Shown: positions 1,924 through 54,929 of the stretch, in pieces
Layout: each line of letters starts with the position of its first letter
Position numbering within the stretch: position 1 is the stretch's first letter
NCBI GenBank assembly: GCA_026387335.1
Contig: JAPLLX010000003.1
Span: 138,230 to 202,229 of the forward strand
Source of the DNA: Candidatus Omnitrophota bacterium
GTDB taxonomy: Bacteria > Omnitrophota > Gorgyraeia > Gygaellales > Profunditerraquicolaceae
Length of the DNA: 64,000 nucleotides
Direction: 5' to 3'
Position numbers and translations under genes: made by a program
Notes under the pieces: model-generated
Database searches by the model: none
Told to the model about the DNA's origin: nothing
The model's input: the letters and a program-made list of their open reading frames with translations, nothing else

Positions 1924-3948
1924 TCATTTCAAAATTACATCCGCAGCAGCTACAACGTCTTCCACACTTATCGCCTTAAGACAGGCGAATTCTTTTTTAC
2001 AATTATGCGCCAGGCACTCAATACAGCCGGATTCCTTATGTAAAACCTTATCTTTTTTACCCAGCGGCCCCCAGCGCTTGGGGCTTAGGCCTGCCTGTTT
2101 TCTTCCGAATATAGAAATCACCGGCGTGCCCACGGCTGAGGCGATATGCACCGGCCCGGAATCATTGGAAATAAACAACCTGCATCTTTTTAATAAACTC
2201 GCTAATTGCGTTACGGAAGTCTTACCGGCCAGGTTTATTGGCGAAGAGCGCATATGTTTAACTAAATTATCGGCGAGCGTAAGGTCTTTGGGCCCGGCGA
2301 CGACTAAGACTTTAAACCCGTATTTCTGCGCAAGCTTTCCAGCGACCTCGGCAAAACGTTGCAGCGGCCAGATCTTAGAAGGACAGCTTGCCGCAGGATG
2401 AATAGCCAACAATTTATCCGTATCGCTTATCCCCTCTTGCGCAAAGATCTCGGCGACCCATTCCTCGGATTCCTTTTTTATAGGCATGAATAAATTTTTA
2501 TCCCGCGCTGCGATCCCTAGATACCTTAATAAATCTAAATTGTATTCTAATTCGTGTTTTTCGCCGAACTGTTTAGTATGTTTGACCCTGTCCGTAAGCA
2601 GGAATCCCAATTTCCGGTCATAACCGACTCTTCTAGGTATGCCGCTAAGAAAAGTTATCAGGTGCACGCGGTTAGTCGGATGTAAGATCAAACTCAAGTC
2701 AAATCTGTTTTTCTTTAATTCCTGTATAAATTTAGCTGAATGTAACCAACCCTTGTGTTCTAGTTCCTTATCTAAAATAACCACCTTATCCAGATAAGGA
2801 TTACCTTCAACAATATCTTTGGCATATCTAGAGACCATCATGGCGATATAGGCGCTGGGGTACTTATCTCTTAAGGCCTTGATCACCGGAGTAGATAAAA
2901 GCACATCGCCGATCCTATCTGTGCGCACGATAAGGATACGTTTAAAATCATCCTCTTTCCTGGTTATTCTTTCCTGGTTACCGGCGATCAATACAGCCTT
3001 GGCTGCCCTGAACACATCGTCTACTTTGACCAAAGATAAACATTCTAAAGTCCCGGATCCGCAGAGCGCCTTAGAGCAGGGCCGGCAATATATATCCTTT
3101 TTTACTACCAAAGAACCTTCTGACCAGGGAGCGTATTTTTCATCATCAGTTATCCCGAATATAGCTACGACCGGAATATCCATATAACTGGCGATATGTA
3201 AAGACGCGCTGTCATTACTGATTAAAAGGCTAGCTCTTTTTAATAGAAGAGCCAACTCATTCAAGGTAGTCTTTCCGCTTAAATCTAATATTGGAATTTT
3301 AGCGTGTTCCGCTATATACCGGTTTACCTGCGCATCTTCCTTATCTCCCGCCAAAATTATCCTTACCGGAAATTCCTTGGCCAGTTTTGAAATTAACTCC
3401 CCAAATTTTTCTTTATCCCAACGCTTGGTCTGGCTACGGGCTCCGGGGGCAATAACGATTAACTTATCGTTTTCTTTTATATTATTTTCTTGGAATAACC
3501 CAGCAACCCTCTTTTTATCCTCGGGGCTAAAATAAATTGACTTATCCGCGGTGTTGAGTTTAGCGCTTTTAAGAAATTTCCTGATTTTATACAGGTGCCT
3601 ATCTTTCATATGCCTTAGGCGCTTAGGAATTTTCAAGAATGGCGAAGTTTTACATTTTGCCTTAAGCAGCGCGCCAAAAAGGCTATTGCGTAAATCTACT
3701 ATAAGATCAAACTTTTCTTTCCTTAAAATATTAAATAACTTTAGCTTTTCCCGAAGCTTCATACGCTTATTGAAAGGAATAAATTTACTTATATAAGGAT
3801 TGCCTGCAAATATCCCGCTGGCCCTTTCTCCGGCGATTACCGTGATCTGCGCGCCGCTAAAATTATCACGCAAAGCATCCAGCGCCGGAAGGGTCAGGAT
3901 AACATCGCCGATATTACTTAAAGTAATGAAAAGGATTTTAGGCGCCAT
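1924..3948 (-). CDS. tandem two-domain glycosyltransferase family 9 protein (ADP-heptose:LPS heptosyltransferase-like x2)
   Basis: Two GT9 N-terminal signatures are present: ILFITLSNIGDVILTLPALDAL and ILIVRTDRIGDVLLSTPVIKAL. Each half ends in a Cys-rich tail. Confidence 0.8.
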   Translation of the reverse strand: MAPKILFITLSNIGDVILTLPALDALRDNFSGAQITVIAGERASGIFAGNPYISKFIPFNKRMKLREKLKLFNILRKEKFDLIVDLRNSLFGALLKAKCKTSPFLKIPKRLRHMKDRHLYKIRKFLKSAKLNTADKSIYFSPEDKKRVAGLFQENNIKENDKLIVIAPGARSQTKRWDKEKFGELISKLAKEFPVRIILAGDKEDAQVNRYIAEHAKIPILDLSGKTTLNELALLLKRASLLISNDSASLHIASYMDIPVVAIFGITDDEKYAPWSEGSLVVKKDIYCRPCSKALCGSGTLECLSLVKVDDVFRAAKAVLIAGNQERITRKEDDFKRILIVRTDRIGDVLLSTPVIKALRDKYPSAYIAMMVSRYAKDIVEGNPYLDKVVILDKELEHKGWLHSAKFIQELKKNRFDLSLILHPTNRVHLITFLSGIPRRVGYDRKLGFLLTDRVKHTKQFGEKHELEYNLDLLRYLGIAARDKNLFMPIKKESEEWVAEIFAQEGISDTDKLLAIHPAASCPSKIWPLQRFAEVAGKLAQKYGFKVLVVAGPKDLTLADNLVKHMRSSPINLAGKTSVTQLASLLKRCRLFISNDSGPVHIASAVGTPVISIFGRKQAGLSPKRWGPLGKKDKVLHKESGCIECLAHNCKKEFACLKAISVEDVVAAADVILK

Positions 3949-6843: not shown

Positions 6844-8931
6844 TTACTTAAGTAATTTATCTATCGCTTCCAGCACTTCTTCAACTGTAATCAAATCCAT
6901 GCATTTCTTATGCCTGCATTTAGGCTTATAGCAGGGGCTGCAAGGCAGGTCTCTTTTAATGATCAGGTAATCCTTGGCCGGAGGCATATGCCTGGCCGGG
7001 TCAGTCGGACCAAAGAATGCGATCACCGGGGTATTTACAGCCGCCGCAATATGTAACGGCGAAGAGTCCGCTGAAATATACAATGAGCAGCGCCGAATAA
7101 GGCAGCTCAACTGATTAACGGTAGTCTTGCCGCAGGCATTGATGATTTTAGTATTCTTCACCATTAAAACTAAGGCATTGGCGCTAGACGCATCCGGTTC
7201 TGTTCCGGTAATCACTACGCGTATATTTCTTACCCCCAGCTCATCGCATAACCGGGCGATGCGGACTGTAGGCCAACACTTAGTAAGCCATTTTTTGCTG
7301 GCGTTAATATTTATTCCGATGATTTTCTGGTCAGCGCTTAACCACTCCCCGCTCAGCAAGTTTTCGATGTATTCTTCATCATCCTTGCTTGGCCACATCT
7401 CCAAACGATTATCCCGTAAATCTATCCCCAGCATTTTAAGCATCCGGAATTGATGGGTCACCGGGTCAATAGCGGGTTTCTCGTCTTTGATCCGGTGATT
7501 AAGGAGAAAACTGAATTTCTTATTGGCGTAGCCGTAACGCTGGACACTTAAAGAAAGAAAAGAAAGCAGGTGGCTTGAGCGGTTATTCTGCATATCAATG
7601 ACCAGGTCAAAATTCTTTTTTCTTAAAACCCGGGCCACGCCAAGCAAACCCCTTAGACCCTTATCTTTGTTCTTAAGGTCAACGACCAAGAGTTCGTCAA
7701 TATAAGGACACCTCAGCAAGACATCTTTAGATTCTTCTCCGACTAAGAAACTGATTTTATGATGCGGGAACCTCTCTCTTATTGCCCTTAAAGAAGGAGT
7801 AGATAAAATCACGTCTCCCAACGAACTTAACTTGATGATTAAAAGTTTAAAATTAGTCAGGGCGTCTTTATAGACATTCAACGTATTATTCACCATTAAC
7901 TCAACATTATATTTTTCTTTGACCTTCGTATACGCTGCCTCGGCCAGGCTGCGCGCCAGACTGGGGTCCTTAAATATTTTAATAACCGCTTCGGCCATAC
8001 TCTGGGGATCGCTGGGTGGAACCATCAACCCGGTGCGGCCATCTTCAATAATATCCACTACCCCTCCGACTTCGGTAGCGACTACCGGCACCCCGGCGGC
8101 CTGCGCCTCTATGATCACTCTTCCAAACGCTTCATGAGTCGTAGTCGCCAGAACAACCAAGTCCAAATTGGATAATATCTCCGGGATATTCCTTTGCGTG
8201 CCTAAAAACTCGGTGCAATGATTAAGCCCCAGCCTCCTGACTAAAACCTGTATTTGCTCTTTATAAGCCTGGCGGGAACTCGGCGCGTCGCCGACTATCC
8301 AGATTTTTATTGACGGCACTACCCTGGCCACCTTAGCCATAGCTTTAATAAAAAACAGGTGGCCCTTAAGCGGAGTGATCCTGCCGATAATGCCGATATT
8401 AAATTCTTTTCCCCGTTTTTTATCGGGGCTGGAATATTTAAATCTTTCCAAATCCACGCTGCGCGGAATGAGCCTTATACGCTCGTGGGGAACAGCGAAA
8501 TCTTCAATCATGTGCCGGGCGATTACGTTGCTTAAAACAATCACCCGTTTTGCCCAACCCATCACATAACTGAATAAATGTTTTTTGTAATAACCGTGGC
8601 AGGTAGTGATAAATACGGTTTTCGTCGAGCGGCAGGCAAAAAAAGCGATCCAGGCAGGCACCCGCGACCGGGCGTGCACAATATCTATCTCTTCTTTCTT
8701 GATGATTTCAACCAGTAAAGGAACGGTTTTGACCATAGAGAGAAGATTCTTTTTATGCACGGGGAGTTGATAATGTAGGCCGCCTAAGGCCTCTATGTCC
8801 TTGACCAGCGAGCCGCCGGCAGAGACCACAACCGCCTTATGCCCTAAGCGGACTAAATACTTGGCCAGATCCAGCGTCCCTGTCTCCACGCCGCCGACAT
8901 TAAGTTCAGGTAATATCTGGAGTATTTTCAT
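6844..8931 (-). CDS. GT4-GT9 fusion glycosyltransferase
   Basis: The N-terminal half is GT4 (EAFGRVIIEAQAAGVPVVATEVGGVVDIIEDGRTG). The C-terminal half is GT9 (LLIIKLSSLGDVILSTPSLRAIRERFP ... CSPCYKPKCRHKKCM). Confidence 0.8.
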   Translation of the reverse strand: MKILQILPELNVGGVETGTLDLAKYLVRLGHKAVVVSAGGSLVKDIEALGGLHYQLPVHKKNLLSMVKTVPLLVEIIKKEEIDIVHARSRVPAWIAFFACRSTKTVFITTCHGYYKKHLFSYVMGWAKRVIVLSNVIARHMIEDFAVPHERIRLIPRSVDLERFKYSSPDKKRGKEFNIGIIGRITPLKGHLFFIKAMAKVARVVPSIKIWIVGDAPSSRQAYKEQIQVLVRRLGLNHCTEFLGTQRNIPEILSNLDLVVLATTTHEAFGRVIIEAQAAGVPVVATEVGGVVDIIEDGRTGLMVPPSDPQSMAEAVIKIFKDPSLARSLAEAAYTKVKEKYNVELMVNNTLNVYKDALTNFKLLIIKLSSLGDVILSTPSLRAIRERFPHHKISFLVGEESKDVLLRCPYIDELLVVDLKNKDKGLRGLLGVARVLRKKNFDLVIDMQNNRSSHLLSFLSLSVQRYGYANKKFSFLLNHRIKDEKPAIDPVTHQFRMLKMLGIDLRDNRLEMWPSKDDEEYIENLLSGEWLSADQKIIGININASKKWLTKCWPTVRIARLCDELGVRNIRVVITGTEPDASSANALVLMVKNTKIINACGKTTVNQLSCLIRRCSLYISADSSPLHIAAAVNTPVIAFFGPTDPARHMPPAKDYLIIKRDLPCSPCYKPKCRHKKCMDLITVEEVLEAIDKLLK

Positions 8932-10871
8932 AGAATTTTACCCACCGCTTCGCTGATTAAAGAGTTATCTTTTAAGATATTGACAGCGGGGTTAGCGCGC
9001 CATATATCTTCTATTCTTACGCTCAATTCCTTAACCTCGCTTAAATATATATGATTATTGCCGGCTAAATTCCTAAGAAAATAGCGGTGTTTCGCGCTTA
9101 AACCCCCGGCCTTAAAAACAACTACAAATTTAGCGCTATTGGCTGCCTCCGAGACCATGGATATACTTTCCGGAGAACTAACGACTACTTTGCTTAAACC
9201 TAATATTCCGCCTACGGCTTCCGGAATGTTTTTTTCGTTGGCGATAAGCATAAGTTTGCAACGTTTAAAACCATCAAATTCCTGTTTTAATAACTGGGCA
9301 ACCTTGGCGGAAGTCCGCCGCGATGTAGTCAGGAGAATATCGGCGTTAATTTTATCCGCCGCGCGTTTAACCTCGCTTATGACTCCCCGCATAATATCAT
9401 TATCCAGGGTAAATTTCTTGCTATCCCCCCCGATTAATAACCCGATATAATCCGAACACGGATTTAGGTTACAGGAGCGGATTAATTTAGCGCCTTCTTC
9501 TTCCAGGTATTGCGGGCTCACCAGGTTAGGCGCCCCCATAGTCACCACTATGTTTTTTTTCTTTTTGGGCTTATCGTGCCTGGGAAGAATGACCAGGTCA
9601 AATTTCTTGGCACTTAAAAATTGGGGCCGCATAATCTGAACGGACTTGCTCAGGTTTTCCCGCGAAATTATAAAATTAATAGCGCTTAAGCCCGAACCGC
9701 AGGAGATAACAATATCCGGTCTAAACGAGCTAAGCGTTTTATAGGCGTTTGTATCAATAAATTTCCTTAAGCATCCCAGGCATCCCTGACAGTTATATTT
9801 GCCTGATAAAAGACTGCTTAAACTTAAAGCTGTTTTTAAAAATTTATTTTTAAACTTTACCTCGGTTATTTCCAGCCCTACCTTTATCCCCTTATTCTTC
9901 AATCTTTCGCTGATTATATTAGCGACAGCCTCTGACTGGCGCAGGTGTCCGGTCTTGCCATCGCTTAATATCAGTAGGCTGCGCTGGTTTGAATATTTCC
10001 AGATCTTATAAGTCCAAAGGTATTCTTTGGGATATTCCCGGATATATTCTTCAAATACCTGGACGGCTCTCCTTAAATTATCTTTTACATCCTTCTCTAA
10101 ATCCCCGGCTCTGCTTAACTCTATCTCCTTACCCACTAAAACTTTTATCTTTGGTCCGCTCTTTCTGGTAAAATATACCGGGACAACGCTGGAACCGTAT
10201 TTTAAGGCTAACTTGATCCCTCCGGTAGACATAGAAGCGGTACGGCCAAAAAATTCCACTAAATCCCCTCCTTTACCCCCCTGATCAAGGGTTATCCCGA
10301 CCGTAGCGTTATTTTTGAGCGCGTCAATTAATTGTTTCAAGCCCCCTTCTTTGGTGATTATCGAGCAGCCTTTTTGGCGACGGTAATTATTCAGTAGTTC
10401 ATTCAAACGGGGGAAACTCTGGCCCTTTACAAAAAGATAGAATGGAAAACCCAGGTTGGCGCAGATAATATTGGAAAGCTCCCAACTTCCTGCGTGAACG
10501 GCAAGAAGAATAACGCCCTTGCCTTTTTTTAAGCCCGCGTAAATATTTTCTAATCCCTCTATTTCTATATATTTTTTCATGTAGGCCTGGCCTACTTTAG
10601 GGATAAGGAATATCTCGATCAGGCTTTGGCCAAATGACTCATAAAATTCTTTCGTAATTTTAGTGATAGCTTTTGGGGAAAGTTTACTGCCAAAAGCCGC
10701 CTTAATATTGGCATAGCTCCTGGCCCTATGCTTAAAATCAAAATAGTAAAAACAATTCCCCAACAGCTGCCCTAAGAAAAGGCTAGCCTCAACCGGGATA
10801 AACCTAAGAACGGCTCCCAGTACCTTAAATAGAATACAGGCCAAGTAATCCAGTAACGAGTTGTTCTTCAT
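8928..10871 (-). CDS. lipid A biosynthesis (Kdo2-lipid IVA) acyltransferase LpxL/HtrB-like domain fused to an ELM1/DUF1022-family putative glycosyltransferase domain
   Basis: The N-terminal ~300 aa have LpxL-family features (HAGSWELSN; GITLDQGG). The C-terminal ~340 aa begin LLILSDGKTGHLRQSEA, resembling the ELM1-family signature vLsDGkaGhenQ. Confidence 0.65.
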   Translation of the reverse strand: MKNNSLLDYLACILFKVLGAVLRFIPVEASLFLGQLLGNCFYYFDFKHRARSYANIKAAFGSKLSPKAITKITKEFYESFGQSLIEIFLIPKVGQAYMKKYIEIEGLENIYAGLKKGKGVILLAVHAGSWELSNIICANLGFPFYLFVKGQSFPRLNELLNNYRRQKGCSIITKEGGLKQLIDALKNNATVGITLDQGGKGGDLVEFFGRTASMSTGGIKLALKYGSSVVPVYFTRKSGPKIKVLVGKEIELSRAGDLEKDVKDNLRRAVQVFEEYIREYPKEYLWTYKIWKYSNQRSLLILSDGKTGHLRQSEAVANIISERLKNKGIKVGLEITEVKFKNKFLKTALSLSSLLSGKYNCQGCLGCLRKFIDTNAYKTLSSFRPDIVISCGSGLSAINFIISRENLSKSVQIMRPQFLSAKKFDLVILPRHDKPKKKKNIVVTMGAPNLVSPQYLEEEGAKLIRSCNLNPCSDYIGLLIGGDSKKFTLDNDIMRGVISEVKRAADKINADILLTTSRRTSAKVAQLLKQEFDGFKRCKLMLIANEKNIPEAVGGILGLSKVVVSSPESISMVSEAANSAKFVVVFKAGGLSAKHRYFLRNLAGNNHIYLSEVKELSVRIEDIWRANPAVNILKDNSLISEAVGKIL

Positions 10872-11871
10872 TTTTTGTGATTTTTAAGGCGATGCGTAAA
10901 ACTAATACCGGATACCCTTTAAATATCTTTAGCTTACTTTCAGATAATCTGGCAGCGTCTTTTTCGGTGGTAATGATCACCTGAAGTTTCTTTTCCCGGC
11001 ATCTGGAAATGATCCCGGACAAATCTTCCGGGCTATAATTATAGTGGTCCGCAAATCTTAGATCCAGGCCTACCTTTATTCCTAAACTGCTGATCAATTT
11101 GGTAAACGAATACGGGTCGCCGATCCCGGAAAATAAAGCCGCGCTTTTGTCTTTAAGCTGGCTTAAACTCAATGATTTATCCGGGTGATTGATTTCATAA
11201 AATCCGGCTGCTTCATGGACTGATTCTATGACCGGAATAGCCGCGTTAATTTTATTTAAACAACTTTTAATATTTTCTAAATCGTTGGTCAGGTTGGTCT
11301 TGGTCAAAACAAAGAGATCCGCGGCCTTAAGCGCAGAAAGCGGCTCGCGCAATATTCCCCGCGGCAGCATATGCCGGTTGCCGAATCCCTGGGGAGCGCT
11401 GACCGCTACAACCTCTAAATCTTTAATTATGCGCCATTGCTGCATACCGTCATCCAGAATAACTGTGTCGGCGCCATACTCCTGGACCGCTCTTCTAGCG
11501 GCCCTGGCCCTGTCTTTATCCACAATTACCGGAATGCCTCCTAAGTTCTTAAGCAGCATAGCCGGCTCATCGCCAAGAGAATCTTTGAGTTTCTTATATC
11601 CCCGGCTTAAAACCGCGACCTTATGGCCTTTGGCTTTAAGGAAACGGGCGACAAACTCTACCAGCGAAGTCTTGCCTGTGCCGCCAACAGTAATATTACC
11701 GATACTGATGACTTTACAATTTAGTTTAAGCGGCCTGAATGAATAAAACAAGATCAGCCCTCTTATTATAGCGCCATAGACAAAAGAGAGTAAAAGCAGG
11801 GGAATTTTTAACAATAAAGCCAGGGGCCCCTGATACCTATCGGTTGCCAGGTTATAAAGATGCTCTTTCAT
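10825..11871 (-). CDS. lpxK: tetraacyldisaccharide 4'-kinase
   Basis: ISIGNITVGGTGKTSLVEFVARFLKAKGHKVAVLSRGY is a P-loop in LpxK context. Confidence 0.8.
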   Translation of the reverse strand: MKEHLYNLATDRYQGPLALLLKIPLLLLSFVYGAIIRGLILFYSFRPLKLNCKVISIGNITVGGTGKTSLVEFVARFLKAKGHKVAVLSRGYKKLKDSLGDEPAMLLKNLGGIPVIVDKDRARAARRAVQEYGADTVILDDGMQQWRIIKDLEVVAVSAPQGFGNRHMLPRGILREPLSALKAADLFVLTKTNLTNDLENIKSCLNKINAAIPVIESVHEAAGFYEINHPDKSLSLSQLKDKSAALFSGIGDPYSFTKLISSLGIKVGLDLRFADHYNYSPEDLSGIISRCREKKLQVIITTEKDAARLSESKLKIFKGYPVLVLRIALKITKNEEQLVTGLLGLYSI

Positions 11872-11960: not shown

Positions 11961-12617
11961 TTACGGCTTAATCAAACTTGGGATTTCCTGCAATTTATTA
12001 ATAATAAGGTCGGCTTTCTTTAGGTATTCTTTAGGCAGGCTGGTAGTAATTGCGACGCAAGACATGCCTGCTCTTTTAGCGGATTCTATGCCCAGGGGCG
12101 CGTTTTCTATCACCAGGCAGGAACTCGGGCTTAGGCCAAAAAGGCCGGCAGCTCTTAGATACGGCTCAGGATCAGGCTTACCTTTCTTTACCTGGTCTCC
12201 GGCTACAATGACTTTAAATAAAGAGATAACCTTAAGGGGCAGGATTGAATTTACCTCATTTTTAGGGGTACCGGTAACTAAGCCTAAGGCATAACCTTGC
12301 CCTTTGAGAGACGCTAAAAGCTTCTCTACCCCGCTAAAAACAAAACGTTTAAAAAGTTTCTTAAATATCTTCTGGCGCTTGATAAACACCTCTCTTAAAA
12401 GCTTAGGCACGGGCTTTATGCCTGACTGGATAAACAAATCCTTAAGCGTATCGTTCCACTTCTCGCCTTCTTTAGAATACACGTCAAAACAGCTCACCCG
12501 CACGCCATAGGGCCTGAGGGCCTCATACCAAGCCAGAAAATGATACGGCATAGAATCAATGATCACGCCATCCATATCAAAAATTATTGCTGCGGGTTTG
12601 ATTTTCAGTTTGGGCAT
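11961..12617 (-). CDS. HAD-IA family hydrolase (beta-phosphoglucomutase-like phosphatase)
   Basis: IIFDMDGVIIDS is HAD motif I, and the length is 218 aa. Confidence 0.7.
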   Translation of the reverse strand: MPKLKIKPAAIIFDMDGVIIDSMPYHFLAWYEALRPYGVRVSCFDVYSKEGEKWNDTLKDLFIQSGIKPVPKLLREVFIKRQKIFKKLFKRFVFSGVEKLLASLKGQGYALGLVTGTPKNEVNSILPLKVISLFKVIVAGDQVKKGKPDPEPYLRAAGLFGLSPSSCLVIENAPLGIESAKRAGMSCVAITTSLPKEYLKKADLIINKLQEIPSLIKP

Positions 12618-12625
12618 TTTCTTAT

Positions 12626-13345
12626 CTATTCCGGCGAGATTAAAGAAAGGTTGCGCTCAATAAATTCCACCAGCTCCTGTTGCGTATTTAACGGCAGGTT
12701 GACGAATTCTATCCCCATCCCGGGATAAGAATGCGGCTGGACCTGTTTATCCGGGATCCAGACTACCTTGCCTTCCAGTTCCAGCTCTTTAGACTTAGGA
12801 GGAAGCTTGATCTTAAGAGTCACTTCATCCCCCAGCCTGAACTTATCGCAACCAAATATAAAAGCGCCTACGCCGCTTAAATTCAGAAGATCCAGTTTTA
12901 AGCAAATGGGGGGCCGCTCATGTTTAGATTTCAATTCTACTTTTATATCGATCGGCAGGCGTTTAAAACGCCGGCGCAGCTGCATCTTTTTTATATCTTC
13001 AATGATCTTATCTTCTTTAAAACTGTTCAGGGCCTGCTCTTCGTTGGCGTACATTTCAATCACCCTGTCTAATCCGGCGATGCAAAAAATATTCTTGATC
13101 GCTACCGGCACATTACAGAATTTCATCCTTCCCTGGTTATTCACTATCTCCTTGTAGGCGATAACAATCACGGATGTGCCCATATAATCAATGAAGTCCA
13201 CCTCTTCCAGATTACAGAGAATATCTTTATACCCGTCATGGACGCACTGGCCGACTACTTCCACTAAATTGGCCGAGTCCACATCAATACGCTCGGATAG
13301 GTCCAAAACAATGACGCCGTTAATCTGCCTGATTTTAATTTCCAT
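12626..13345 (-). CDS. STAS (anti-sigma-factor antagonist-like) domain fused to a PilZ c-di-GMP-binding domain
   Basis: The N-terminal ~110 aa have SpoIIAA-like STAS topology. The C-terminus carries RRRFKR (RxxxR) and, ~25 aa later, NLSGVG (D/NxSxxG) plus GMGIEF. The start overlaps the end of kdtA. Confidence 0.65.
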   Translation of the reverse strand: MEIKIRQINGVIVLDLSERIDVDSANLVEVVGQCVHDGYKDILCNLEEVDFIDYMGTSVIVIAYKEIVNNQGRMKFCNVPVAIKNIFCIAGLDRVIEMYANEEQALNSFKEDKIIEDIKKMQLRRRFKRLPIDIKVELKSKHERPPICLKLDLLNLSGVGAFIFGCDKFRLGDEVTLKIKLPPKSKELELEGKVVWIPDKQVQPHSYPGMGIEFVNLPLNTQQELVEFIERNLSLISPE

Positions 13346-14603
13346 CGGATAACCCTATAAATTTAATTGCGTCCATATTTCTTAAGGTCGCGCCCTGATT
13401 TCCGGCGATCACTTCCTTGGCGTTAGCCGCCAGCTGGGTTGCCCGGGAATCGCTTTTTAATATTTCTTCCAGGGCCAAGGCCAGATCCGCTTCGGTCTTG
13501 ACCATTATCGCGGCATTATTCTTCAGGAACATCCCGGATATATCCCGGAAATTAAACATGTGCGGCCCGAAAATTACCGGCTTGCCAAAATTAGCCGGCT
13601 CCAGAATATTGTGCCCGCCTCTTTTAATCAGACTTCCGCCCACGAATACGATGTCCGCGGCCGAATAGAAATTCACTAATTCTCCGACGGTATCCAGAAT
13701 AAAGACAGGATTATCTTTAGAACTGACATTAACCGAGTTTAACCTAGAGATCTCCAAACCCTTAAACCCATAAGCAGCTGTTATTTTTAAGAGGTCTCTT
13801 GCTCTTTGCGGATGCCTGGGCGCGATTAAAAGCTTAAGGCCGGGGAATTTATTTAAAAGCCCCGCATAGGCCCTTAAAATTATCTCTTCTTCTCCCGGGT
13901 GGGTTGAACCGGCGATCAATAATTTATCGCTAAAACTTAAACCCAGTTTTTCCCTGTATCCCTGCGCCTGAGCCAGGCCTAACTGGTCAAATTTCATATT
14001 TCCGGTCACTTTTACTTTATCCGGGATAGCCCCTAACCGCCTAAGTCTGTGCGCGTCGGATTCTGTCTGCGCGCAAAATAAATTTATTTTATTTAAGATA
14101 GGTTTGATTAAAAACCTGACCGCTAAATACCCTTTAAAAGAGGCATCGGATATCCGGGCGTTTACAGTGACAATGGGTATATTTTTTTTATGCAGATAGG
14201 TTATCAGGTTCGGCCATAGCTCAGTTTCAGCGATAATAAAAATACCCGGATTGATCCTGTTGATCACCTTTCTGACCGTAAAACTAAAATCCAAAGGCAG
14301 ATAAGTGACCAGGTCCCTATCTTTAGCTATAGTCTTAGCGATTTTATTCCCGGCGGGAGTAACCGTAGAGATAACGAATTTCTTATCCGGATAAACCTTG
14401 CGCAACTCTTCCACCAAGCCGCGGATAGATATGGCCTCGCCTAAACTTACGGCGTGGATCCAAATCGGCCTAGCTAATGATAGATCCTTAAAAGGCGCTC
14501 CTAAACGCGCTAAAAACCCGCGATGGAACTTACCTTTAAACAAATACGCCGGCAGGCAAACTAAAGTAAATACCAGAAATATTAAATCATATAATATAAA
14601 CAT
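13335..14603 (-). CDS. waaA: 3-deoxy-D-manno-octulosonic acid (Kdo) transferase
   Basis: ARLGAPFKDL...IWIHAVSLGEAISIRGLVEEL matches GT30 KdtA. Confidence 0.85.
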   Translation of the reverse strand: MFILYDLIFLVFTLVCLPAYLFKGKFHRGFLARLGAPFKDLSLARPIWIHAVSLGEAISIRGLVEELRKVYPDKKFVISTVTPAGNKIAKTIAKDRDLVTYLPLDFSFTVRKVINRINPGIFIIAETELWPNLITYLHKKNIPIVTVNARISDASFKGYLAVRFLIKPILNKINLFCAQTESDAHRLRRLGAIPDKVKVTGNMKFDQLGLAQAQGYREKLGLSFSDKLLIAGSTHPGEEEIILRAYAGLLNKFPGLKLLIAPRHPQRARDLLKITAAYGFKGLEISRLNSVNVSSKDNPVFILDTVGELVNFYSAADIVFVGGSLIKRGGHNILEPANFGKPVIFGPHMFNFRDISGMFLKNNAAIMVKTEADLALALEEILKSDSRATQLAANAKEVIAGNQGATLRNMDAIKFIGLSDGN

Positions 14604-21422: not shown

Positions 21423-21974
21423 TTAGAGGCTGCTTCCGATAATCCCGGCCAAGACCACAATATCTTCGGTGCAAAATATACCGGTTATACTGGAATCAAA
21501 ATACATATTCGCGTCAGGGCCGAACTCCGTATCAGCCTTCCAAAGCTTAACCAAGACCGGGACCCCGGCAAAAGCCTGAATAACAATCCCAAAATCTCCG
21601 CCGCCGGACTGCTCAGCCGGCAGCCTTTCTAACGCGGTTTTAATCGCTTCGGGGTTTTGGCCGTACTTTCTTATAATCGGCTCGATTGCCCGTTTACGGT
21701 AAGCGTCAAAATACCCTTCAACTCCGGAAAATTCCCTGAAGGTAAGCCAATTCCCGGTGACCCCGGGCAACCCTTTTATCTTTTGAACAAGATAATGCAG
21801 GATAAGAATGCTTGTAAAATCTTTCGCCTGGGTATTGCACGAAAGCGATAAGACCCTCTTGGCTTCTAAATCCAGGCTATATTCATCGGCTAAGAATTTA
21901 ACTGATAACTCCTTCGCCGGCTTTAACTTAGCTAAATCTTCCCAGGCCTTCTTAACGGCTACCTCATATCCCAC
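21423..21974 (-). CDS. hypothetical protein
   Basis: A 183-aa ORF divergent from the helicase gene. No confident family assignment. Confidence 0.4.
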   Translation of the reverse strand: MGYEVAVKKAWEDLAKLKPAKELSVKFLADEYSLDLEAKRVLSLSCNTQAKDFTSILILHYLVQKIKGLPGVTGNWLTFREFSGVEGYFDAYRKRAIEPIIRKYGQNPEAIKTALERLPAEQSGGGDFGIVIQAFAGVPVLVKLWKADTEFGPDANMYFDSSITGIFCTEDIVVLAGIIGSSL

Positions 21975-21996
21975 AAATTCATTTTACTATTTATTA

Positions 21997-22026
21997 TTAG
22001 ATAAATCAATGATTTTAGATTATAAT
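21997..22026 (+). promoter_or_regulatory. candidate promoter for a leaderless helicase transcript
   Basis: TATAAT lies at 22021-22026, 6 nt before the ATG at 22033. A weak -35-like ttagat sits 18 nt upstream. Confidence 0.3.
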
Positions 22027-22032
22027 ATTTGT

Positions 22033-23913
22033 ATGATCTACGACCGGTTCCAACAGGAAGCGATTGACCACATAAATAACGGCCATTCGGTAATCGTCTC
22101 CGCTCCGACCGGAGCGGGAAAGACCGCCATTGCCGAACATATCATAACCACATGCATTGAAAAGAATATAGGCGTAATCTACACCGCTCCTATCAAAGCC
22201 CTCTCTAACCAGAAGTTCCGCGATTTTCAGGCTCAATACGGAGATAAGATCGGGCTATTGACCGGGGACGTTTCCTTAAACGCTTCCGCTCCGATTTTAA
22301 TCATGACTACCGAGATCTTCCGCAATAAAATCCTGGATGAGCCCAAAAGCCTGGAACAATACTCCTGGATCATATTTGACGAAATTCATTATATTGATAA
22401 CCCCGAGCGCGGCACTGTCTGGGAAGAATCCCTGATTTTTCTGCCCCGGCATATGAATATTCTGGGGTTATCCGCGACTATCCCGAACATAAAACAATTC
22501 GCCTCCTGGATCGAATCAATCCATAATAAACCGGTCCAGACCGTAATTGAAGAAAAACGGCCCGTGCCTTTGCATTTCTTCTTTCAGGTCGGCAACGAAA
22601 TCAGCGATAAGCTTGACCACTTTAAAAGGATGCGTTTCCATAAACCTAATAAATTATTCGGCCTGATAAATTATCTGCGTTCCAAGGAAGGGCTGCCCTG
22701 TATATATTTTGTCTTCGGCCGGCGCCGGGCGGAAGAATTAGCGTCGGATCTAGCCTCTTCTAATTTCCTGAACGCGGAAGAAAAAACAAAAATCCTGCGG
22801 ATGTATAGCGAACTCTGCGAGCGTTTTGACTTAAAAGGCGACCGCACTGCCCAAAATTTATACCAGCTTGTGCAAAACGGCATCGCCTACCACCACGCCG
22901 GAATGCTCCCTACCTTAAAAGAAGTGATTGAAAGGCTCTTTACGAGCAGGCTCTTAAAAGTCATCTTTACCACTGAGACATTTGCCTTAGGGATAAATAT
23001 GCCCAGCCGCACGGTTATATTTGATGAACTGCGTAAATTCTACGGCCGTTACGTGCGGGCCTTAAAGACGCGGGATTTCTACCAGATGGCTGGACGCGCG
23101 GGCAGGCGGGGGATTGATACCGAAGGCTCGGTCTATTGCCGGATCAACCTGCAGAGGATCCGCCTGGAGGAAGTCAAACGCGTAATTTACGGTAAGCCCG
23201 AAGAAGTAAAAAGCCAGCTGAACACTTCTTACGCCACTATTCTTAATCTTTATGAAAAATATAAAGAAGATTTATTTAAGATCTACCCTCTTTCATTGCA
23301 TTTCTTCCAGTCGCGCAAAAACGAGCAAAAAGAGGCCCTCAGGCTTATCGAGGCTAAATTAAATTTATTGAAAGGCTTAAACTACATAGCTGACGGCGCT
23401 TTGACCGAAAAAGGACAATTCGCCAAAAATGTCTACGGTTATGAATTGATCTTAAGCGAGCTCTACGACCAGCATATCTTAGAGCAGTTGGATGAATTCG
23501 GTTTGGGAGTAATAGCGGTTTCCGCTGTATTTGAGCCGCGTAAAAACCAACGCCTCCCCTCTAACCTTTCTAAAAGTACCCGGCAGATCAAAAAGCTCTG
23601 CGAGGATATCTACGACGGGATCAAACATAAAGAAGAAAAATTGCGGATCTATCCTTTCAGCAAACTCCCCTATTTTCACATGAGTACCGCAATGGAGGCT
23701 TGGCTGCGCGGAACAAATTTTGATAAGACCTTGAGGTTCGGGGATACCGATGAAGGCGAAGTAGTGCGCTATTTCCGGATGAGTGTGCAGGTTCTACGCG
23801 AAATCAAAGACGCCAAAATTTCTTCTTATGTATTAAAAGATAAAATCAAAGAGACGATACGCGTAATTAACCGCGATGTAGTGGACGCGGAGAAACAACT
23901 TAGGGAAGGCTAA
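22033..23913 (+). CDS. Ski2/Mtr4/HelY-like DExH-box RNA helicase
   Basis: Motif I is APTGAGKT. Motif II is IIFDEIHYIDNPERGTVWEE, very close to the Mtr4 FDEVHY..ERGVVWEE. A C-terminal DSHCT-like region is present. The start is trimmed to MIYDRF. Confidence 0.75.
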   Translation: MIYDRFQQEAIDHINNGHSVIVSAPTGAGKTAIAEHIITTCIEKNIGVIYTAPIKALSNQKFRDFQAQYGDKIGLLTGDVSLNASAPILIMTTEIFRNKILDEPKSLEQYSWIIFDEIHYIDNPERGTVWEESLIFLPRHMNILGLSATIPNIKQFASWIESIHNKPVQTVIEEKRPVPLHFFFQVGNEISDKLDHFKRMRFHKPNKLFGLINYLRSKEGLPCIYFVFGRRRAEELASDLASSNFLNAEEKTKILRMYSELCERFDLKGDRTAQNLYQLVQNGIAYHHAGMLPTLKEVIERLFTSRLLKVIFTTETFALGINMPSRTVIFDELRKFYGRYVRALKTRDFYQMAGRAGRRGIDTEGSVYCRINLQRIRLEEVKRVIYGKPEEVKSQLNTSYATILNLYEKYKEDLFKIYPLSLHFFQSRKNEQKEALRLIEAKLNLLKGLNYIADGALTEKGQFAKNVYGYELILSELYDQHILEQLDEFGLGVIAVSAVFEPRKNQRLPSNLSKSTRQIKKLCEDIYDGIKHKEEKLRIYPFSKLPYFHMSTAMEAWLRGTNFDKTLRFGDTDEGEVVRYFRMSVQVLREIKDAKISSYVLKDKIKETIRVINRDVVDAEKQLREG

Positions 23914-24333: not shown

Positions 24334-25281
24334 TTAAGATGACTCTCCTCTTTCTTTATATTCCAGATAATCCCGAAGTATTTTTTTATGGTCAAAAGCC
24401 AGATCCAGCAAAACAGCTTCCTTAGGCTGAACTATTTTTAATGCCGCCGCGTCATCGCCGGCTTTGGGCTTACCTTTGGCGCAGGCAATAAAAATAGTCC
24501 CTATAGTGTGGAAGCGCGGGTCGCGCTTAGGGTCAGAGTAAATATGGAATTGTTTTACGCGAGTTATATCCAGTCCGGTCTCTTCTTTTGCTTCTCTGAC
24601 AACAGCGTCTTCCAGGCTCTCGCCATAATCCACGAATCCTCCCGGCAGGGCCCAACCAAAAGGAGGGTTGCTCCGCTGGATCAGGACTATACCGCCGTCT
24701 ATTTCAATTATGGCATCAACCGTAGGAAACGGACCATTCTGCAATTTATAAACAATATGCTCTAAGTATTTGATCACCCCTTGATCAAAGATAGTGTAAG
24801 CCTCCTGGTCGTAGAGGCTAAAAGATATTTCTTTAAGCTGGGAATCCTCTTCCCTTAAATAACGCCAAACTTCCTGGGCCATAATTTTAGCCGAAGCCAA
24901 TAAAGGAAACTTGCCCACTCCGCAGCCTAACGCCGGGAAGACGATAGACTTTACCCCTAACTCATCCGCTATCCTTAAAGAATTCCTGCAGGAATTCCGG
25001 ATCTTTATTTCATCGGTTTTAAAATCCGGGCCCATGACCGCGGCATGAATTATATATTTTGCCTTTAAGTCTCCGGCGGTAGTAAAAACTGCTTCGCCTA
25101 TATTTATCGGGCATTTTTTTAGCGCTTCTTCCTCAATAATTTTGCCGCCCTTGTTTTTTATAGCCGCGGCCACCCCCCCGCCCATAATTCCTTGATTATT
25201 TGCCGCGTTGACAATGGCCTCGGCTGCCAGCTCGGTAATATCCGCCTGAACAATTTTTATTTCGCACTTGTTGATTTTCAT
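24334..25281 (-). CDS. macro domain (ADP-ribose binding/processing) fused to NUDIX hydrolase
   Basis: The N-terminus ([18 protein letters not shown]...IHAAVMGP) is a macro domain. The C-terminal Nudix box is [24 protein letters not shown]. Confidence 0.7.
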
Positions 25282-25295
25282 GCTTAACCCTCTCG

Positions 25296-25991
25296 CTATA
25301 GCTTTTCCAGTATCAACTTCTTATTTTTCTGGTCAACCTTAAAGTTAAACCTCTTTAAGAACGACATCCCCAGCAACCCGTCGCCAAAACCGGACTTTCC
25401 TGTATCATCCAGTAAAACCGCTGCCTCCACGTTTCTGGCCTCCACCCCCTGGACCTCTACCCTGTCAATAAAGGCGCGCTTGGCTTTAATTTCGTGGCCG
25501 CCGACAACCTGGGCTTTCATATCCAGAGAGCTGCCGGTTAAATCAATCTTTAATTTATCCGCGATATTCTTAGTGATGATCATAACCGAAGCGCCGGTAT
25601 CTAAAACCATTTTGGCTTCCACTTTATTATTCAGGATGACCTTTACCGTGATACCCTGCTGGTCGGAAGAGAACTTTACGGAGCTGGGAGCGCCCTCTTC
25701 TTCAAGTTTTTGTTTAGCCGCTTTTTCCTCTGACTCAATTTTATTCTCCTGCCATTTACGGCGCAAAGCCAAAGAATTATCAGAAGAGCCTTTGACGATA
25801 TTTTCTATTTCGCTTTTAAGAAAACTTACCTGGCAAGCTTCGCCTACTTCCAATTCTACGGTTTTAGCGTTGTCGTTTTTTACAATGCCTACTACGCTGC
25901 GGCCGTTTTTAAGGTAGATGATATCGGCAGAGGAATACAGGGGAAAAACAAAGAAGATAAACAGACTGATGAGAACCTTCGGAATGACCAT
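25296..25991 (-). CDS. secreted retropepsin-like (clan AA) aspartic protease
   Basis: An N-terminal signal peptide is followed by [12 protein letters not shown], the D-T-G-A aspartyl protease motif. Confidence 0.6.
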
Positions 25992-28428: not shown

Positions 28429-30861
28429 TTAAATTCTCTTCAGAAAAGTATCGGCCAGGCTCTTAATAATATCGGTTACCGCCGCCTGAAATCTATATTT
28501 CGGCTCCTTAAGCGTTCCGCTGATTTTAATCTCCGCGAACTTCCCGGACTGGCCGATTATGGCGGTAGCCACATCTTTAAATGTCCCGGTTAGAGGGACA
28601 AATTCATCAAGGATATTAACATTCAGCTTAGCCAATATGGAACCATCAAACCCTATTTTCACCGGGCCGGACAGATTCACCATGTTGCTTTTTAATTCCA
28701 GTTTATCGCTAAATATAGATTTATCCTGTATATTGAACGCGCAGGAACCTTCGTTAAATGTAACATTGGCTAAATCCTGCGAAAATAATAATTTACCCAT
28801 TCCTTTAAACAAATCCAATTCCCAGAGCTTGCCTTTAGTGATAGCTATCGTTCCGGACCCTTGAGAACCGGCGAGGTCTCCTAAGAGCCCGCTGGCCTTA
28901 ACCTCTCCCTGGATGATCCCGGAGATGTCCTTGGCCTTGGCCGGAGTATCCAGCTTGAGCTCTTCAATCCGGACATCCTGAATATTGGCGTTAAGCAAAT
29001 AAGGATAATTGCCGGATTTTAAATTTGTCCTGAAAAAAGCGTTCAATGACCCGCTGTATAAAGAGAGGCGCAGAGATGAAATACTGGCTATACCTGCCTC
29101 CTGAATGTAATTTATAAACAGGTTTTGGCCTTTTAAGCCATACAGAGAAACAGCGTCTGCGGCAACCTCGACATTAATGGCGCAACCCGCCAAATCATTA
29201 GCCTGGCCGGTTAAATTAAATTTAGCGTTAAGCTTCCCCTCAGGATTAGCCTTATCCAACTGCTCCCTGAACTTACGCAAAGGAACTTTTAAATCCTTTA
29301 AATCAATAAGCAGCTCTCCTGCCAGGTCAACTTGCGGACCGGAATCATCCGCGCTATCAATATTACCGGAAACTTGAAACTCTGAATTTAAATAACTTCC
29401 CGAACACTGAAGAACTTTGAGTAATTTATTATTAAAATTTAGGTCAGAGGCGAGCGAAATTTCGCTGGATTTTAAGTCAACGCCAAGAAGTAAAGCCGGA
29501 CTGAGTTTGTCTTTTGAAAACGACACCTTTCCGTTAATCCCTTGTATTGGATAATTTATATTCTTTAAATTCAGCCCCGCGTCAATAAATTCAATATAAC
29601 CGCTTGTCTCTAAATCACCTGCTGCGGAAAGCCTGCCCTTAGCCGCAAAATACAAATTCCCTTTTCCGTCAATAGTCCCGGGGAAATCAAATTTAAATTT
29701 ATCTTTTAAGAGCCCCTGTAAAGAAGCCAGGTTTAAGCCGGAAACAACATTTACATCTACATAAGGATCGCTAAAATTATCCAAGGTAGCCTGGCCTTTA
29801 AATGGCAGGCCCAGAACAACGGCAGACAGATCCTGCGTTTTTAGCCCGGAGTTGTTAAAAGTTACTGTCGCATTAACAGCGCTGATCTTATCAATAAATT
29901 CCACTCCGGAAATTTCTGTGCCCTTGATCTGGCAGCTCCCGGAATATTTCAGGGTTTTAGCGCCCAGGTCATACTCCAAAACAGCCCTTAATTCCGGGCT
30001 GGTTTTAATGCCGATATTATTTAGCCGGATATTTAAATCATTCCCTTGCGCCTGTAAGTCGGCAGAAAGCAGGTTCTCCTTAACTCTTAAATCAACCAGC
30101 GCGTTTATGAGCCCTGTAGGAATTTTTAACCCTGAGCCCTGATAATAAACGGATAATTCATCAGGAGAGAAATTCAGGATATTTAATTTAGCGCTTAATT
30201 CCCGCTGCGGGATTTTAAATTCCCCGGAAGCCCGGATTTTTATTGGCTGGACAGCCGGGACAATAGCGGAAAGATTGAATTTTACCGCTGCCGGCAATGA
30301 TAAATAAGCCGTCAAATTCAGATTCTTTACGTTTTTAATAAAAGGCTTATCTAATGTAGAATCCCGGAAAATAATTTCACTATTGGATAGGTTCACCCGG
30401 TAAACATAAAAGCTGAATCCTTTTGACGGATGCGCCGGAGCTTTAGGCGAAGCTGTACTTACAGAGGAAGTTGCGGGAGGGGTTTGGGGAGAAAACAGGC
30501 TGGCTAAATTAAAGGTATTGTCCTTTCGCCTCTCAAGAAATACTCGCGCGGATTTAATGCTTATATTGGGGATAATGATCTGCTTACGCAGGAACGCGAA
30601 AGGTAAAACAATACAGGAAGCTTCTTTTACCTCTATCAACGGGTTTTCTTCCTGATAAATATTCAGGTCGGTCAAAACCAGCCCTTTAAATATATTTACC
30701 TTGATAGCCCCTAGAGTGGCCCTTGAGCCGGTGTTTTCTTCAATACCCTTAATAATCAGAGAATGGATTGTTTTAGGCAGATATACATTATTTAAATAAA
30801 CTATGGCTAGGGTGAATAAAACAACTAAAACAATCAGGCTTATAATTATGATCTTCTTCAT
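28429..30861 (-). CDS. AsmA-family (TamB-like) outer-membrane biogenesis protein
   Basis: An N-terminal TM anchor begins an 810-aa repetitive beta-rich protein starting MKKIIIISLIVLVVLFTLAIVYLNNVYLPK, as in AsmA. Confidence 0.65.
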   Translation of the reverse strand: MKKIIIISLIVLVVLFTLAIVYLNNVYLPKTIHSLIIKGIEENTGSRATLGAIKVNIFKGLVLTDLNIYQEENPLIEVKEASCIVLPFAFLRKQIIIPNISIKSARVFLERRKDNTFNLASLFSPQTPPATSSVSTASPKAPAHPSKGFSFYVYRVNLSNSEIIFRDSTLDKPFIKNVKNLNLTAYLSLPAAVKFNLSAIVPAVQPIKIRASGEFKIPQRELSAKLNILNFSPDELSVYYQGSGLKIPTGLINALVDLRVKENLLSADLQAQGNDLNIRLNNIGIKTSPELRAVLEYDLGAKTLKYSGSCQIKGTEISGVEFIDKISAVNATVTFNNSGLKTQDLSAVVLGLPFKGQATLDNFSDPYVDVNVVSGLNLASLQGLLKDKFKFDFPGTIDGKGNLYFAAKGRLSAAGDLETSGYIEFIDAGLNLKNINYPIQGINGKVSFSKDKLSPALLLGVDLKSSEISLASDLNFNNKLLKVLQCSGSYLNSEFQVSGNIDSADDSGPQVDLAGELLIDLKDLKVPLRKFREQLDKANPEGKLNAKFNLTGQANDLAGCAINVEVAADAVSLYGLKGQNLFINYIQEAGIASISSLRLSLYSGSLNAFFRTNLKSGNYPYLLNANIQDVRIEELKLDTPAKAKDISGIIQGEVKASGLLGDLAGSQGSGTIAITKGKLWELDLFKGMGKLLFSQDLANVTFNEGSCAFNIQDKSIFSDKLELKSNMVNLSGPVKIGFDGSILAKLNVNILDEFVPLTGTFKDVATAIIGQSGKFAEIKISGTLKEPKYRFQAAVTDIIKSLADTFLKRI

Positions 30862-35139: not shown

Positions 35140-35594
35140 TTTCTGCTCCTTATCTTTTTCTCGATTTCTTTTAGCTGATTAAGCCTGCGCTTATGCCGGC
35201 CGCCTTGAAATTTTGTATTTAGCCAAACGTCGACTATTTTCTTGGCCAATCCGGGTTTGACGAATAACGCGCCAAAAACCAGGATATTACTATCATTGTG
35301 TTCGCGGGATAACCGCGCTACTTTTACATTAGCGCATAACGCCGCGCGCGCTCCGGGGACGCGGTTAGCGACCATAGAATTACCTATGCCGCTTTTACAG
35401 ATTAAAATCCCTCTTTTAAATTTGCCCTCTCCGATTTTACTGGCCAGGTTATAGGCAAACTCCGGGTAATCGCATCTTTTTTCGCTAAAAGCCCCCAGGT
35501 CCTTGACTACCAACCCTTTATTTTTTAGATACGGTTTTAAGCTCTCTTTTAAAGCAAATCCGCCGTGATCGCAAGCTATAAGAATAGTTTTCAT
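35136..35594 (-). CDS. rpiB: ribose-5-phosphate isomerase B
   Basis: [19 protein letters not shown] is the RpiB/LacAB N-terminus. Confidence 0.85.
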
Positions 35595-54074: not shown

Positions 54075-54595
54075 TAAGCTGCCGGTCTCATCTTTATTTC
54101 CTGCAATGCTTGGATGACCTGGAACAATAATTGTTCGCCTTTTTTAACTAAAGGCGCCCTTTCTTTATCCATGATCGTCGGGTCATCTTTTTCCAGCGCC
54201 TCTATCGCCTTGTTATACGCCGCGATGTCGTTATCCAGCACCTCTAAGAACATCTTGCTTATAGCGCTATATTTCTCTATAGGCACGCTGGCTAAATATG
54301 CGGTCTTTACATCTTCCAGCAATTTTTTCTCAGCTGAATAATAATTGACGGCGACCGCATTGCCAAAAGCGTCTTTCTTCGGGACAAAAGTTACTACTTT
54401 GTTACGGCAAATGAGCTTGCCGCTGGTTATGTTTTTTACCCTGTCTGCCAGGCTCAACATCGTGTTTACATAAACAGCTTTCGACAGCGGCTTGGGCGCT
54501 GTAGTTACTTTCTTCTGATGAGTAAACTTTAGACCAAAGAAAACTAAACCCAAAAACACAACAACTACCACCCCGAATATCCCGATTCTCTTCAT
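54074..54595 (-). CDS. hypothetical membrane-anchored protein
   Basis: A 173-aa ORF with an N-terminal TM helix. Its stop overlaps the downstream gene start. Confidence 0.4.
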   Translation of the reverse strand: MKRIGIFGVVVVVFLGLVFFGLKFTHQKKVTTAPKPLSKAVYVNTMLSLADRVKNITSGKLICRNKVVTFVPKKDAFGNAVAVNYYSAEKKLLEDVKTAYLASVPIEKYSAISKMFLEVLDNDIAAYNKAIEALEKDDPTIMDKERAPLVKKGEQLLFQVIQALQEIKMRPAA

Positions 54596-54626
54596 ATTAT
54601 CGTCCCCTTTTCTTATTGAACCAGCC

Positions 54627-54914
54627 TTAAGAAACCTTGGGCGTATTCATAAACTCTACGCCGATTTCATACCTATCATCTTTAGTATCTTCCCTGACCC
54701 ATACAACTCTGGCAAAACCATCATAGGAGAACTCCGTTAAAGAAAACCTTATCTTTAAAATAGTCTCTTTAGGAATAAATTCATGCGTAAAGAAACTTAC
54801 CCCTCCCTGGCTGATATTCCGGGTAAGAAAAAACTGCGTTTTCGGGTTGTTGGAGATTTCGTATGCTATATTCAGGGATTGCGGTATCCGGACAAATTTC
54901 CTTCGGTCTATCAT
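54627..54914 (-). CDS. PilZ domain protein (c-di-GMP receptor)
   Basis: RRKFVRI (RxxxR) and NISQGG (NxSxxG) are present, and the length is 95 aa. Confidence 0.6.
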   Translation of the reverse strand: MIDRRKFVRIPQSLNIAYEISNNPKTQFFLTRNISQGGVSFFTHEFIPKETILKIRFSLTEFSYDGFARVVWVREDTKDDRYEIGVEFMNTPKVS

Positions 54915-54929
54915 GATATAAGTATTCTT

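Follow-up and report, generated by a model that had tools for sequence, protein, structure and literature searches.

STAS partner switches and PilZ receptors are among the best-studied bacterial signalling modules. SpoIIAA and RsbV, the anti-sigma factor antagonists, are standalone STAS proteins of roughly 110 aa, and the phospho-acceptor serine of SpoIIAA is the residue directly after the Asp in the string 'FMDSSGLG'. MlaB, a STAS protein that serves the MlaFEDB lipid transporter as an accessory subunit, works in lipid homeostasis of the outer membrane, outside sigma-factor pathways, and provides a precedent for a STAS protein directed at the envelope. Among PilZ proteins, the two-domain receptors YcgR, MotI/DgrA, PlzA and PP4397 carry a canonical PilZ domain at the C-terminus, with the RRxxxR motif placed on the inter-domain linker; in proteins of the YcgR/MotI type the N-terminal domain is itself a PilZ-derived barrel (xPilZ/PilZN). 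The motifs RxxxR and [D/N]hSxxG define the PilZ domains that bind c-di-GMP, and some PilZ-family proteins do not bind this ligand (doi 10.1101/814665). STAS-PilZ is not among the architectures listed in that review (doi 10.1101/814665), and a literature search covering STAS together with PilZ, anti-sigma antagonists and c-di-GMP in Omnitrophota found no paper describing a STAS-PilZ architecture. The protein analyzed here has a STAS domain where YcgR/MotI-type receptors have a PilZ-derived barrel and, unlike SpoIIAA and RsbV, has this domain covalently fused to PilZ. With modest confidence, we read it as a cytoplasmic c-di-GMP-gated, phosphorylation-independent two-domain STAS adaptor, characteristic of Omnitrophota.

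The STAS-PilZ gene and its family

A sequence-only reading of the window (the whole 64-kb stretch of DNA that was analyzed) had proposed a STAS-PilZ fusion at 12626-13345, with the motif strings RRRFKR, NLSGVG and GMGIEF, located between kdtA/waaA and a HAD-lpxK-lpxL series and overlapping the kdtA stop codon. All of this was borne out: both domains were recovered, the three strings are present in the translation (GMGIEF, read from the sequence, at residues 209-214), and the position is correct, with an overlap of 11 nt. The features of the gene and of its neighbours are the following:

12626..13345, minus strand: STAS-PilZ gene, an ORF of 239 aa, with Pfam STAS and PilZ both above gathering cut-offs
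13031..13345, minus strand: STAS domain of SpoIIAA/RsbV type, residues 1-105 (Pfam, residues 3-105; phmmer against PDB; Foldseek)
13184..13186, minus strand: TAT codon of Tyr54, at the phospho-serine position of SpoIIAA/RsbV (HMMER alignment)
12965..13042, minus strand: long linker helix from STAS to PilZ, residues 102-127, with RRxxxR at its end (AF2 model)
12959..12976, minus strand: RRRFKR, the first c-di-GMP motif (RRxxxR), residues 124-129 (read from the sequence)
12866..12883, minus strand: NLSGVG, the [D/N]hSxxG motif, residues 155-160 (read from the sequence)
12656..12976, minus strand: PilZ domain, residues 124-230, a beta-barrel followed by a C-terminal helix (Pfam, AF2, Foldseek)
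13335..14603, minus strand: kdtA/waaA Kdo transferase (Glycos_transf_N, 200.5 bits)
13335..13345, minus strand: overlap of the kdtA stop and the STAS-PilZ start, 11 nt, ATGGAAATTAA (read from the sequence)
11961..12617, minus strand: HAD-IA hydrolase, beta-phosphoglucomutase/YqaB-like (HAD_2, 105.4 bits)
10825..11871, minus strand: lpxK, tetraacyldisaccharide 4'-kinase (Pfam LpxK, 254 bits; TIGR00682, 170 bits, above cut-off)
8928..10871, minus strand: lpxL-type lipid A acyltransferase fused to an Elm1-like domain (Lip_A_acyltrans, 156.9 bits; Mito_fiss_Elm1, 156.1 bits)

The STAS domain scored 53.8 bits over residues 3-105 (cut-off 22.6) and the PilZ domain (PF07238) 58.7 bits over residues 124-230, covering profile positions 2-101 of 102 (cut-off 22.5). 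The ORF is a genuine gene and not a chance reading frame, since its product has homologs in more than 1000 clusters (90% identity level) at E ≤ 1e-5, the best 120 of which are 239-251 aa long and 68-100% identical to it. The window protein is matched at 100% identity by an NCBI entry that comes from a Candidatus Omnitrophica MAG and is annotated as 'anti-sigma factor antagonist'. At present the family carries no annotation but this one, and the name implies a phospho-regulated mechanism for which the sequence gives no support.

When 1.84 billion representatives were searched exhaustively, wider full-length two-domain relatives with 28-46% identity were retrieved, and every organism-named member of the close and deep family is assigned to Candidatus Omnitrophota. 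Family members vary little in length (mostly 236-252 aa) and are well conserved in sequence. Judged by these comparisons, STAS-PilZ is a large, uncharacterised family spread across the uncultured phylum Omnitrophota, and apparently a single-copy one. Its size, good conservation and apparent single-copy state make it a probable central c-di-GMP effector in this phylum, which has almost no cultured members.

Gene order and the lipid A neighbourhood

In the window, STAS-PilZ lies in a co-directional run formed by kdtA, the HAD gene, lpxK, lpxL-Elm1 and GT4/GT9 core glycosyltransferases, with a polysaccharide deacetylase gene also found beyond lpxL-Elm1. The TAA stop of kdtA sits inside ATGGAAATTAA, the STAS-PilZ start codon is ATG, and the HAD gene follows 8 nt downstream of the STAS-PilZ stop codon. 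Two of the neighbours scored under the cut-offs of their more specific families, namely the kdtA product (367.7 bits against NF004388, equivalog cut-off 438) and the HAD hydrolase (126 bits against TIGR02009). Upstream of kdtA and on the same strand are xerC, topA, dprA and aroK. STAS-PilZ is probably co-transcribed with kdtA, the HAD gene and lpxK in the lineage of the window; a promoter and terminator scan of 8.5-19.5 kb yielded sites no commoner than in shuffled sequence and was uninformative on this point.

Other genomes share the arrangement; had it been confined to this one, that would have spoken against the sequence-only reading. Among 80 species-level Omnitrophota ortholog loci (64-82% identity), kept from 131 matches, about 85% show synteny with kdtA/lpxK. 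Where at least 5 kb of upstream flank was available, kdtA was found somewhere upstream in 46 of 54 loci, and of the 61 loci whose downstream flank reached 2.5 kb or more, 51 had lpxK within 2.5 kb downstream. The spacing is far from uniform: of the 73 loci with at least 1.5 kb of upstream flank, 11 show the 11-nt overlap of kdtA with the STAS-PilZ gene and 7 have kdtA 0-120 nt upstream; in 36 other genes intervene and kdtA is found 0.1-4.3 kb upstream, and 19 have no kdtA in the flank. The intervening genes, named by reading their sequences and not by family search, include greA, a CMP/dCMP-type deaminase, a UbiA prenyltransferase and an OsmC-like gene. The HAD gene adjoins STAS-PilZ in 35 of 80 loci, two of which are without lipid A genes. 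In many loci a Leu codon aligned with M1 had suggested a fusion with the upstream OsmC-like gene, which was rejected, as the start lies one codon earlier (MLEI...).

In about 12 ortholog loci, kdtA and lpxK are both missing from the neighbourhood and no gene for lipid A synthesis lies within 6 kb; these loci mostly form the basal branches of the ortholog clade in a rough NJ tree. Paralogy was considered for these loci and rejected: none of the assemblies concerned has a second, lipid A-linked copy among the 80 loci kept of 131 matches, and the loci are therefore orthologs in different contexts. Lipid A genes are likewise absent from all seven deeper family contexts examined. These are of three types, the first with ribosomal protein S21, a small ORF and sometimes BacA upstream, the second with a standalone PilZ gene and a small ORF upstream and an ECF sigma factor and an AsmA-like gene downstream, and the third with an M23 peptidase and a 47-aa ORF upstream and a radical SAM gene downstream. 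Small conserved neighbour ORFs of 47, 77 and 125 aa were observed in loci L085-L094, which belong to other clades.

These data bear on the proposal that STAS-PilZ is a dedicated c-di-GMP regulator of late lipid A/Kdo/core assembly, in which the STAS domain would bind KdtA, LpxK, LpxL or another envelope enzyme encoded nearby and c-di-GMP would tune LPS synthesis. In its favour are the co-directional run in the window, with the kdtA-stop overlap and the 8 nt to the HAD gene, and the frequency of kdtA upstream and lpxK downstream among the orthologs. Envelope machines served by STAS proteins are also known, as MlaB with MlaFED. Against it, the same gene string includes dprA, topA and xerC, and in the 36 loci with separated kdtA such genes as greA, the deaminase, ubiA and osmC intervene, so that the string is not a dedicated operon; the overlap with kdtA is confined to the 11 loci mentioned, the mostly basal orthologs do without any lipid A gene within 6 kb, and the seven deeper contexts have S21/BacA, PilZ with an ECF sigma factor, or an M23 peptidase with radical SAM instead. 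Nor does the protein resemble MlaB, which is absent both from the PDB sequence matches at E ≤ 0.01 and from the best 50 Foldseek matches; no mlaFED or other ABC-transporter gene adjoins the STAS-PilZ gene, and with neither the similarity nor the transporter present a MlaB-like role was dropped.

We read the lipid A neighbourhood as a gene order that is conserved yet particular to one lineage, within a long, mixed housekeeping string. It is compatible with co-transcription and is weak evidence for a functional link. Of the earlier suggestion that c-di-GMP directly controls LPS core assembly, the gene adjacency stood, but its sole basis is this lineage-specific gene order, with the overlap seen in 11 of 73 loci and kdtA separated in 36 of 73. 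The protein could control LPS assembly directly, but support for this is weak, and a dedicated regulator of this kind is in our judgement unlikely. Should the linkage to lipid A, for which the evidence is weak, prove functional, it would represent a new regulatory input into LPS biogenesis.

The STAS half and its phospho-acceptor position

Sequence and predicted structure place the N-terminal domain in the SpoIIAA/RsbV anti-sigma-antagonist type. SpoIIAA structures (1auz, 1th8) were retrieved by phmmer against the PDB at E about 5e-10, and the closest Foldseek match, 1th8_B, is the SpoIIAA of G. stearothermophilus in complex with SpoIIAB (TM 0.85, rmsd 1.6 A, 32% identity), with RsbV (6m36) also among the matches. 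The protein passed the NCBIfam family TIGR00377, 'anti-sigma factor antagonist', with 57.9 bits against a cut-off of 53.45. Beyond the common fold, it keeps the Asp of the D-S-x-G loop and the YK of helix 2.

The phospho-acceptor itself is replaced. In the HMMER alignment the query string 'FIDYMGTS' stands opposite 'FMDSSGLG' of SpoIIAA, with Tyr54 opposite Ser, so that at the start of helix 2 the conserved Asp is followed by Tyr54 instead of a phosphorylatable Ser/Thr. This is also the position at which the 1tid chain differs from that of 1th8, the sole difference between them being Ser to Ala. Tyr54 (motif DYxG) is invariant in all three family alignments, including the one with 94 members. 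In a census of the residue at this position among the 150 best representatives, Tyr was found in 19 of the 20 two-domain close or deep family members with an aligned residue, and Ser in 66 of 81 standalone STAS matches; 12 standalone matches have Tyr and may be truncated family members. By alignment, then, this is a STAS domain without its phospho-acceptor serine, which a family-invariant Tyr has replaced. A nearby residue, S58, is conserved in at least 90% of sequences, and either S58 or Tyr54 itself could in principle be modified.

The genes expected of a partner switch were searched for in two ways. Pfam revealed no HATPase_c_2/RsbW kinase, SpoIIE/PP2C phosphatase or sigma factor among essentially all genes of the window. 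A phmmer search, run on every ORF in about 926 kb of sequence from the window and 90 related loci, with the flanks of L091-L094 left out, recovered no RsbW/SpoIIAB-like kinase but STAS domains only; it used kinase queries only, namely RsbW and SpoIIAB sequences and a STAS-HATPase_c_2 fusion protein.

The sequence-only reading had suggested c-di-GMP input into a partner-switching module; a module of the classical form does not agree with these results. As an explanation it would make the protein a phospho-regulated anti-sigma antagonist that releases a sigma factor, with PilZ as a second input and with an RsbW-type kinase and a PP2C phosphatase encoded elsewhere. The TIGR00377 score and the SpoIIAA-SpoIIAB complex as closest structure are consistent with it, as are sigma-70-family genes 2-4 kb from some deep family members. 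Further support comes from a small separate STAS-PilZ group (P0191, P0243; seven sequences found), which has the same domain order and a similar length but keeps the DSxG serine where the Omnitrophota family has Tyr. Judging by its sequences, this group is probably from Acidobacteriota, and it looks like an independent fusion, since its STAS halves are nearest to standalone STAS proteins of Terriglobia and Blastocatellia. Weighing against a classical antagonist are the invariant Tyr at the phospho-acceptor position of the Omnitrophota family, the lack of a detectable RsbW-like kinase, adjacent or otherwise, in the window and the 90 related loci, and the absence of PP2C phosphatase and HATPase_c_2 kinase genes from the window by Pfam. 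We regard this explanation as quite unlikely.

The PilZ half and its predicted coupling to STAS

The PilZ motifs, whose degeneration would have undermined the sequence-only reading, are intact. In an alignment of 94 diverse family members, which share 29-78% identity with the window protein, R125, R129 and G160 do not vary, and R124, N155 and S157 are conserved in at least 90%. The AF2 model built on this alignment (pLDDT 88.5) shows a STAS fold, the long helix 102-127, a PilZ barrel and a C-terminal helix, and supersedes an earlier model on a 12-sequence alignment (pLDDT 69), in which the PilZ domain was poor. In the PilZ half, strands extend across residues 130-214 and a helix spans 219-236, with pLDDT about 85-93, and Foldseek matched it to MotI (5vx6), the c-di-GMP-bound PilZ domain of Alg44 (4rt0) and the PilZ domain of BcsA. 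As far as sequence and model can tell, the domain has all the features, in sequence and in fold, of a PilZ domain that binds c-di-GMP, and binding of c-di-GMP by the protein is well supported by inference. In loci L056 and L085, REC-GGDEF genes are found at a distance of 2-5 kb from the family members, which implies that c-di-GMP synthesis exists in Omnitrophota; a second canonical PilZ encoded in the window also speaks for c-di-GMP signalling in the phylum.

On another reading, PilZ would work as a protein-interaction module that needs no ligand, as the eponymous PilZ protein does, and c-di-GMP would have no role. This reading can cite the existence of non-binding PilZ-family proteins (doi 10.1101/814665) and the lack of any diguanylate cyclase in the window, where Pfam recovered no GGDEF, EAL or HD-GYP protein among essentially all genes, but it is highly improbable, given that non-binding PilZ domains have lost their motifs and here both are invariant or nearly so, and that Omnitrophota genomes carrying family members have REC-GGDEF genes.

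With the phospho-site gone and no kinase detected near the gene, a phosphorylation-independent, c-di-GMP-gated adaptor is the simplest model. In the AF2 model the conserved helix 102-127 runs from the last STAS helix straight into RRxxxR, and in the ortholog-clade alignment nearly every residue of the linker S108-P131 is invariant; the inter-domain geometry of the model is of low confidence (pTM 0.52), and pLDDT falls to 55-68 in the linker, at roughly residues 111-130. RRxxxR on the linker in front of a C-terminal canonical PilZ domain is the arrangement of the two-domain receptors named above, and it leads us to expect that ligand binding re-orients the N-terminal domain. By analogy with these receptors, c-di-GMP would wrap the RRxxxR segment onto the PilZ barrel, and this wrapping would re-orient the N-terminal STAS domain, whose partner-binding face could thereby be exposed or hidden. 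In such a switch c-di-GMP would take the place of the kinase/phosphatase pair as the on/off input to STAS. Conformational coupling between PilZ and STAS is inferred from YcgR/MotI-type proteins. An envelope-related output of the adaptor is possible in the lineage of the window and is not required by the evidence.

A fusion of this kind, with its phospho-site lost, would mean that c-di-GMP can do the job of a kinase/phosphatase pair. The most far-reaching version holds both that c-di-GMP binding, through a Tyr-for-Ser STAS domain and PilZ, has replaced kinase/phosphatase input in Omnitrophota and that the switch is wired to KdtA/LpxK in the lineage of the window. We consider this combined claim very unlikely to hold; if true, the wiring would place lipid A-Kdo assembly under direct control by a second messenger, the first such case.

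The window contains one further PilZ gene, also pointed out in the sequence-only reading:

54627..54914, minus strand: standalone PilZ protein of 95 aa (Pfam PilZ, 45.8 bits)

It is real, and its motifs, DRRKFVR and NISQGG, are canonical, which marks its product as the predicted second c-di-GMP receptor of the window, outside the STAS-PilZ locus.

HAD-IA hydrolase, glycoside phosphorylase and signalling neighbours of STAS-PilZ

In two related Omnitrophota loci, L046 and L069, the HAD-IA hydrolase gene lies directly upstream of the STAS-PilZ gene, that is, in reversed order, and the pair is located away from lipid A genes. The persistence of the pair in these loci hints at a pairing of HAD with STAS/PilZ that is independent of both kdtA and lpxK. 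An ortholog of the GH94-like gene of the window adjoins STAS-PilZ in three relatives outside the lipid A setting, namely the same two loci and L045. In the window, the following features were identified:

51456-54074 (-), GH94-like glycoside phosphorylase
54627-54914 (-), standalone PilZ protein, inside the region 51456-55346

In the window, the GH94-like gene is two genes away from the standalone PilZ gene, which is itself adjoined by a YjbQ/UPF0047 gene.

In several ortholog loci, a receiver-domain-like gene was found immediately upstream of the STAS-PilZ gene, with kdtA either not nearby or about 3 kb off. These include the first three loci listed here. The fourth harbors a REC-GGDEF gene on the downstream side:

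L060, 5604-5993, receiver-domain-like gene upstream of STAS-PilZ
L076, 4392-4886, receiver-domain-like gene upstream of STAS-PilZ
L080, 2681-3064, receiver-domain-like gene upstream of STAS-PilZ
L056, 8749-9960, REC-GGDEF gene 2 kb downstream of STAS-PilZ

Small flanking ORFs and an aspartyl protease in deeper family members

In other Omnitrophota clades (loci L085-L094), the STAS-PilZ gene is flanked by small conserved ORFs, which are candidate partners:

L089, L090 and L094, ORF of 47-48 aa upstream of STAS-PilZ
L085 and L086, ORF of 77 aa downstream of STAS-PilZ
L087, L088 and L093, ORF of 125-126 aa upstream of STAS-PilZ

In another of these loci (L092), the gene directly 3' of STAS-PilZ is a homolog of the aspartyl protease gene of the window, which in the window adjoins a gene encoding a Macro-NUDIX fusion:

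24334-25281 (-), Macro-NUDIX fusion protein
25296-25991 (-), retropepsin-like aspartyl protease

Fused proteins and strand layout of the window

The LPS core region of the window encodes fused glycosyltransferases (the first two entries below), and the fusion of LpxL with an Elm1-like domain is kept in about 50 related Omnitrophota loci:

1924-3948 (-), double GT9 (heptosyltransferase) match in one protein of 674 aa
6844-8931 (-), GT4-GT9 fusion of 695 aa
8928-10871 (-), LpxL-type lipid A late acyltransferase and Elm1-like (Mito_fiss_Elm1) domain in one protein of 647 aa

In model bacteria, AsmA/YhdP-like proteins and FtsH are tied to the homeostasis of LPS and outer-membrane lipids. Genes for both are present in the window, neither of them adjoining the STAS-PilZ gene, together with the other genes listed:

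28429-30861 (-), AsmA/YhdP-like protein
35591-36652 (-), Sua5/YrdC (t6A synthesis) domain fused with a low-molecular-weight phosphotyrosine phosphatase domain
42568-45421 (-), tandem pair of PurF-like glutamine amidotransferase genes
46864-49752 (-), PurL of 962 aa, with PurS matches at its N-terminal end
62279-63976 (+), FtsH

A strong strand bias extends over the whole window, the minus strand holding nearly all long ORFs (about 50) and the plus strand only those of a helicase (21808-23913) and FtsH.
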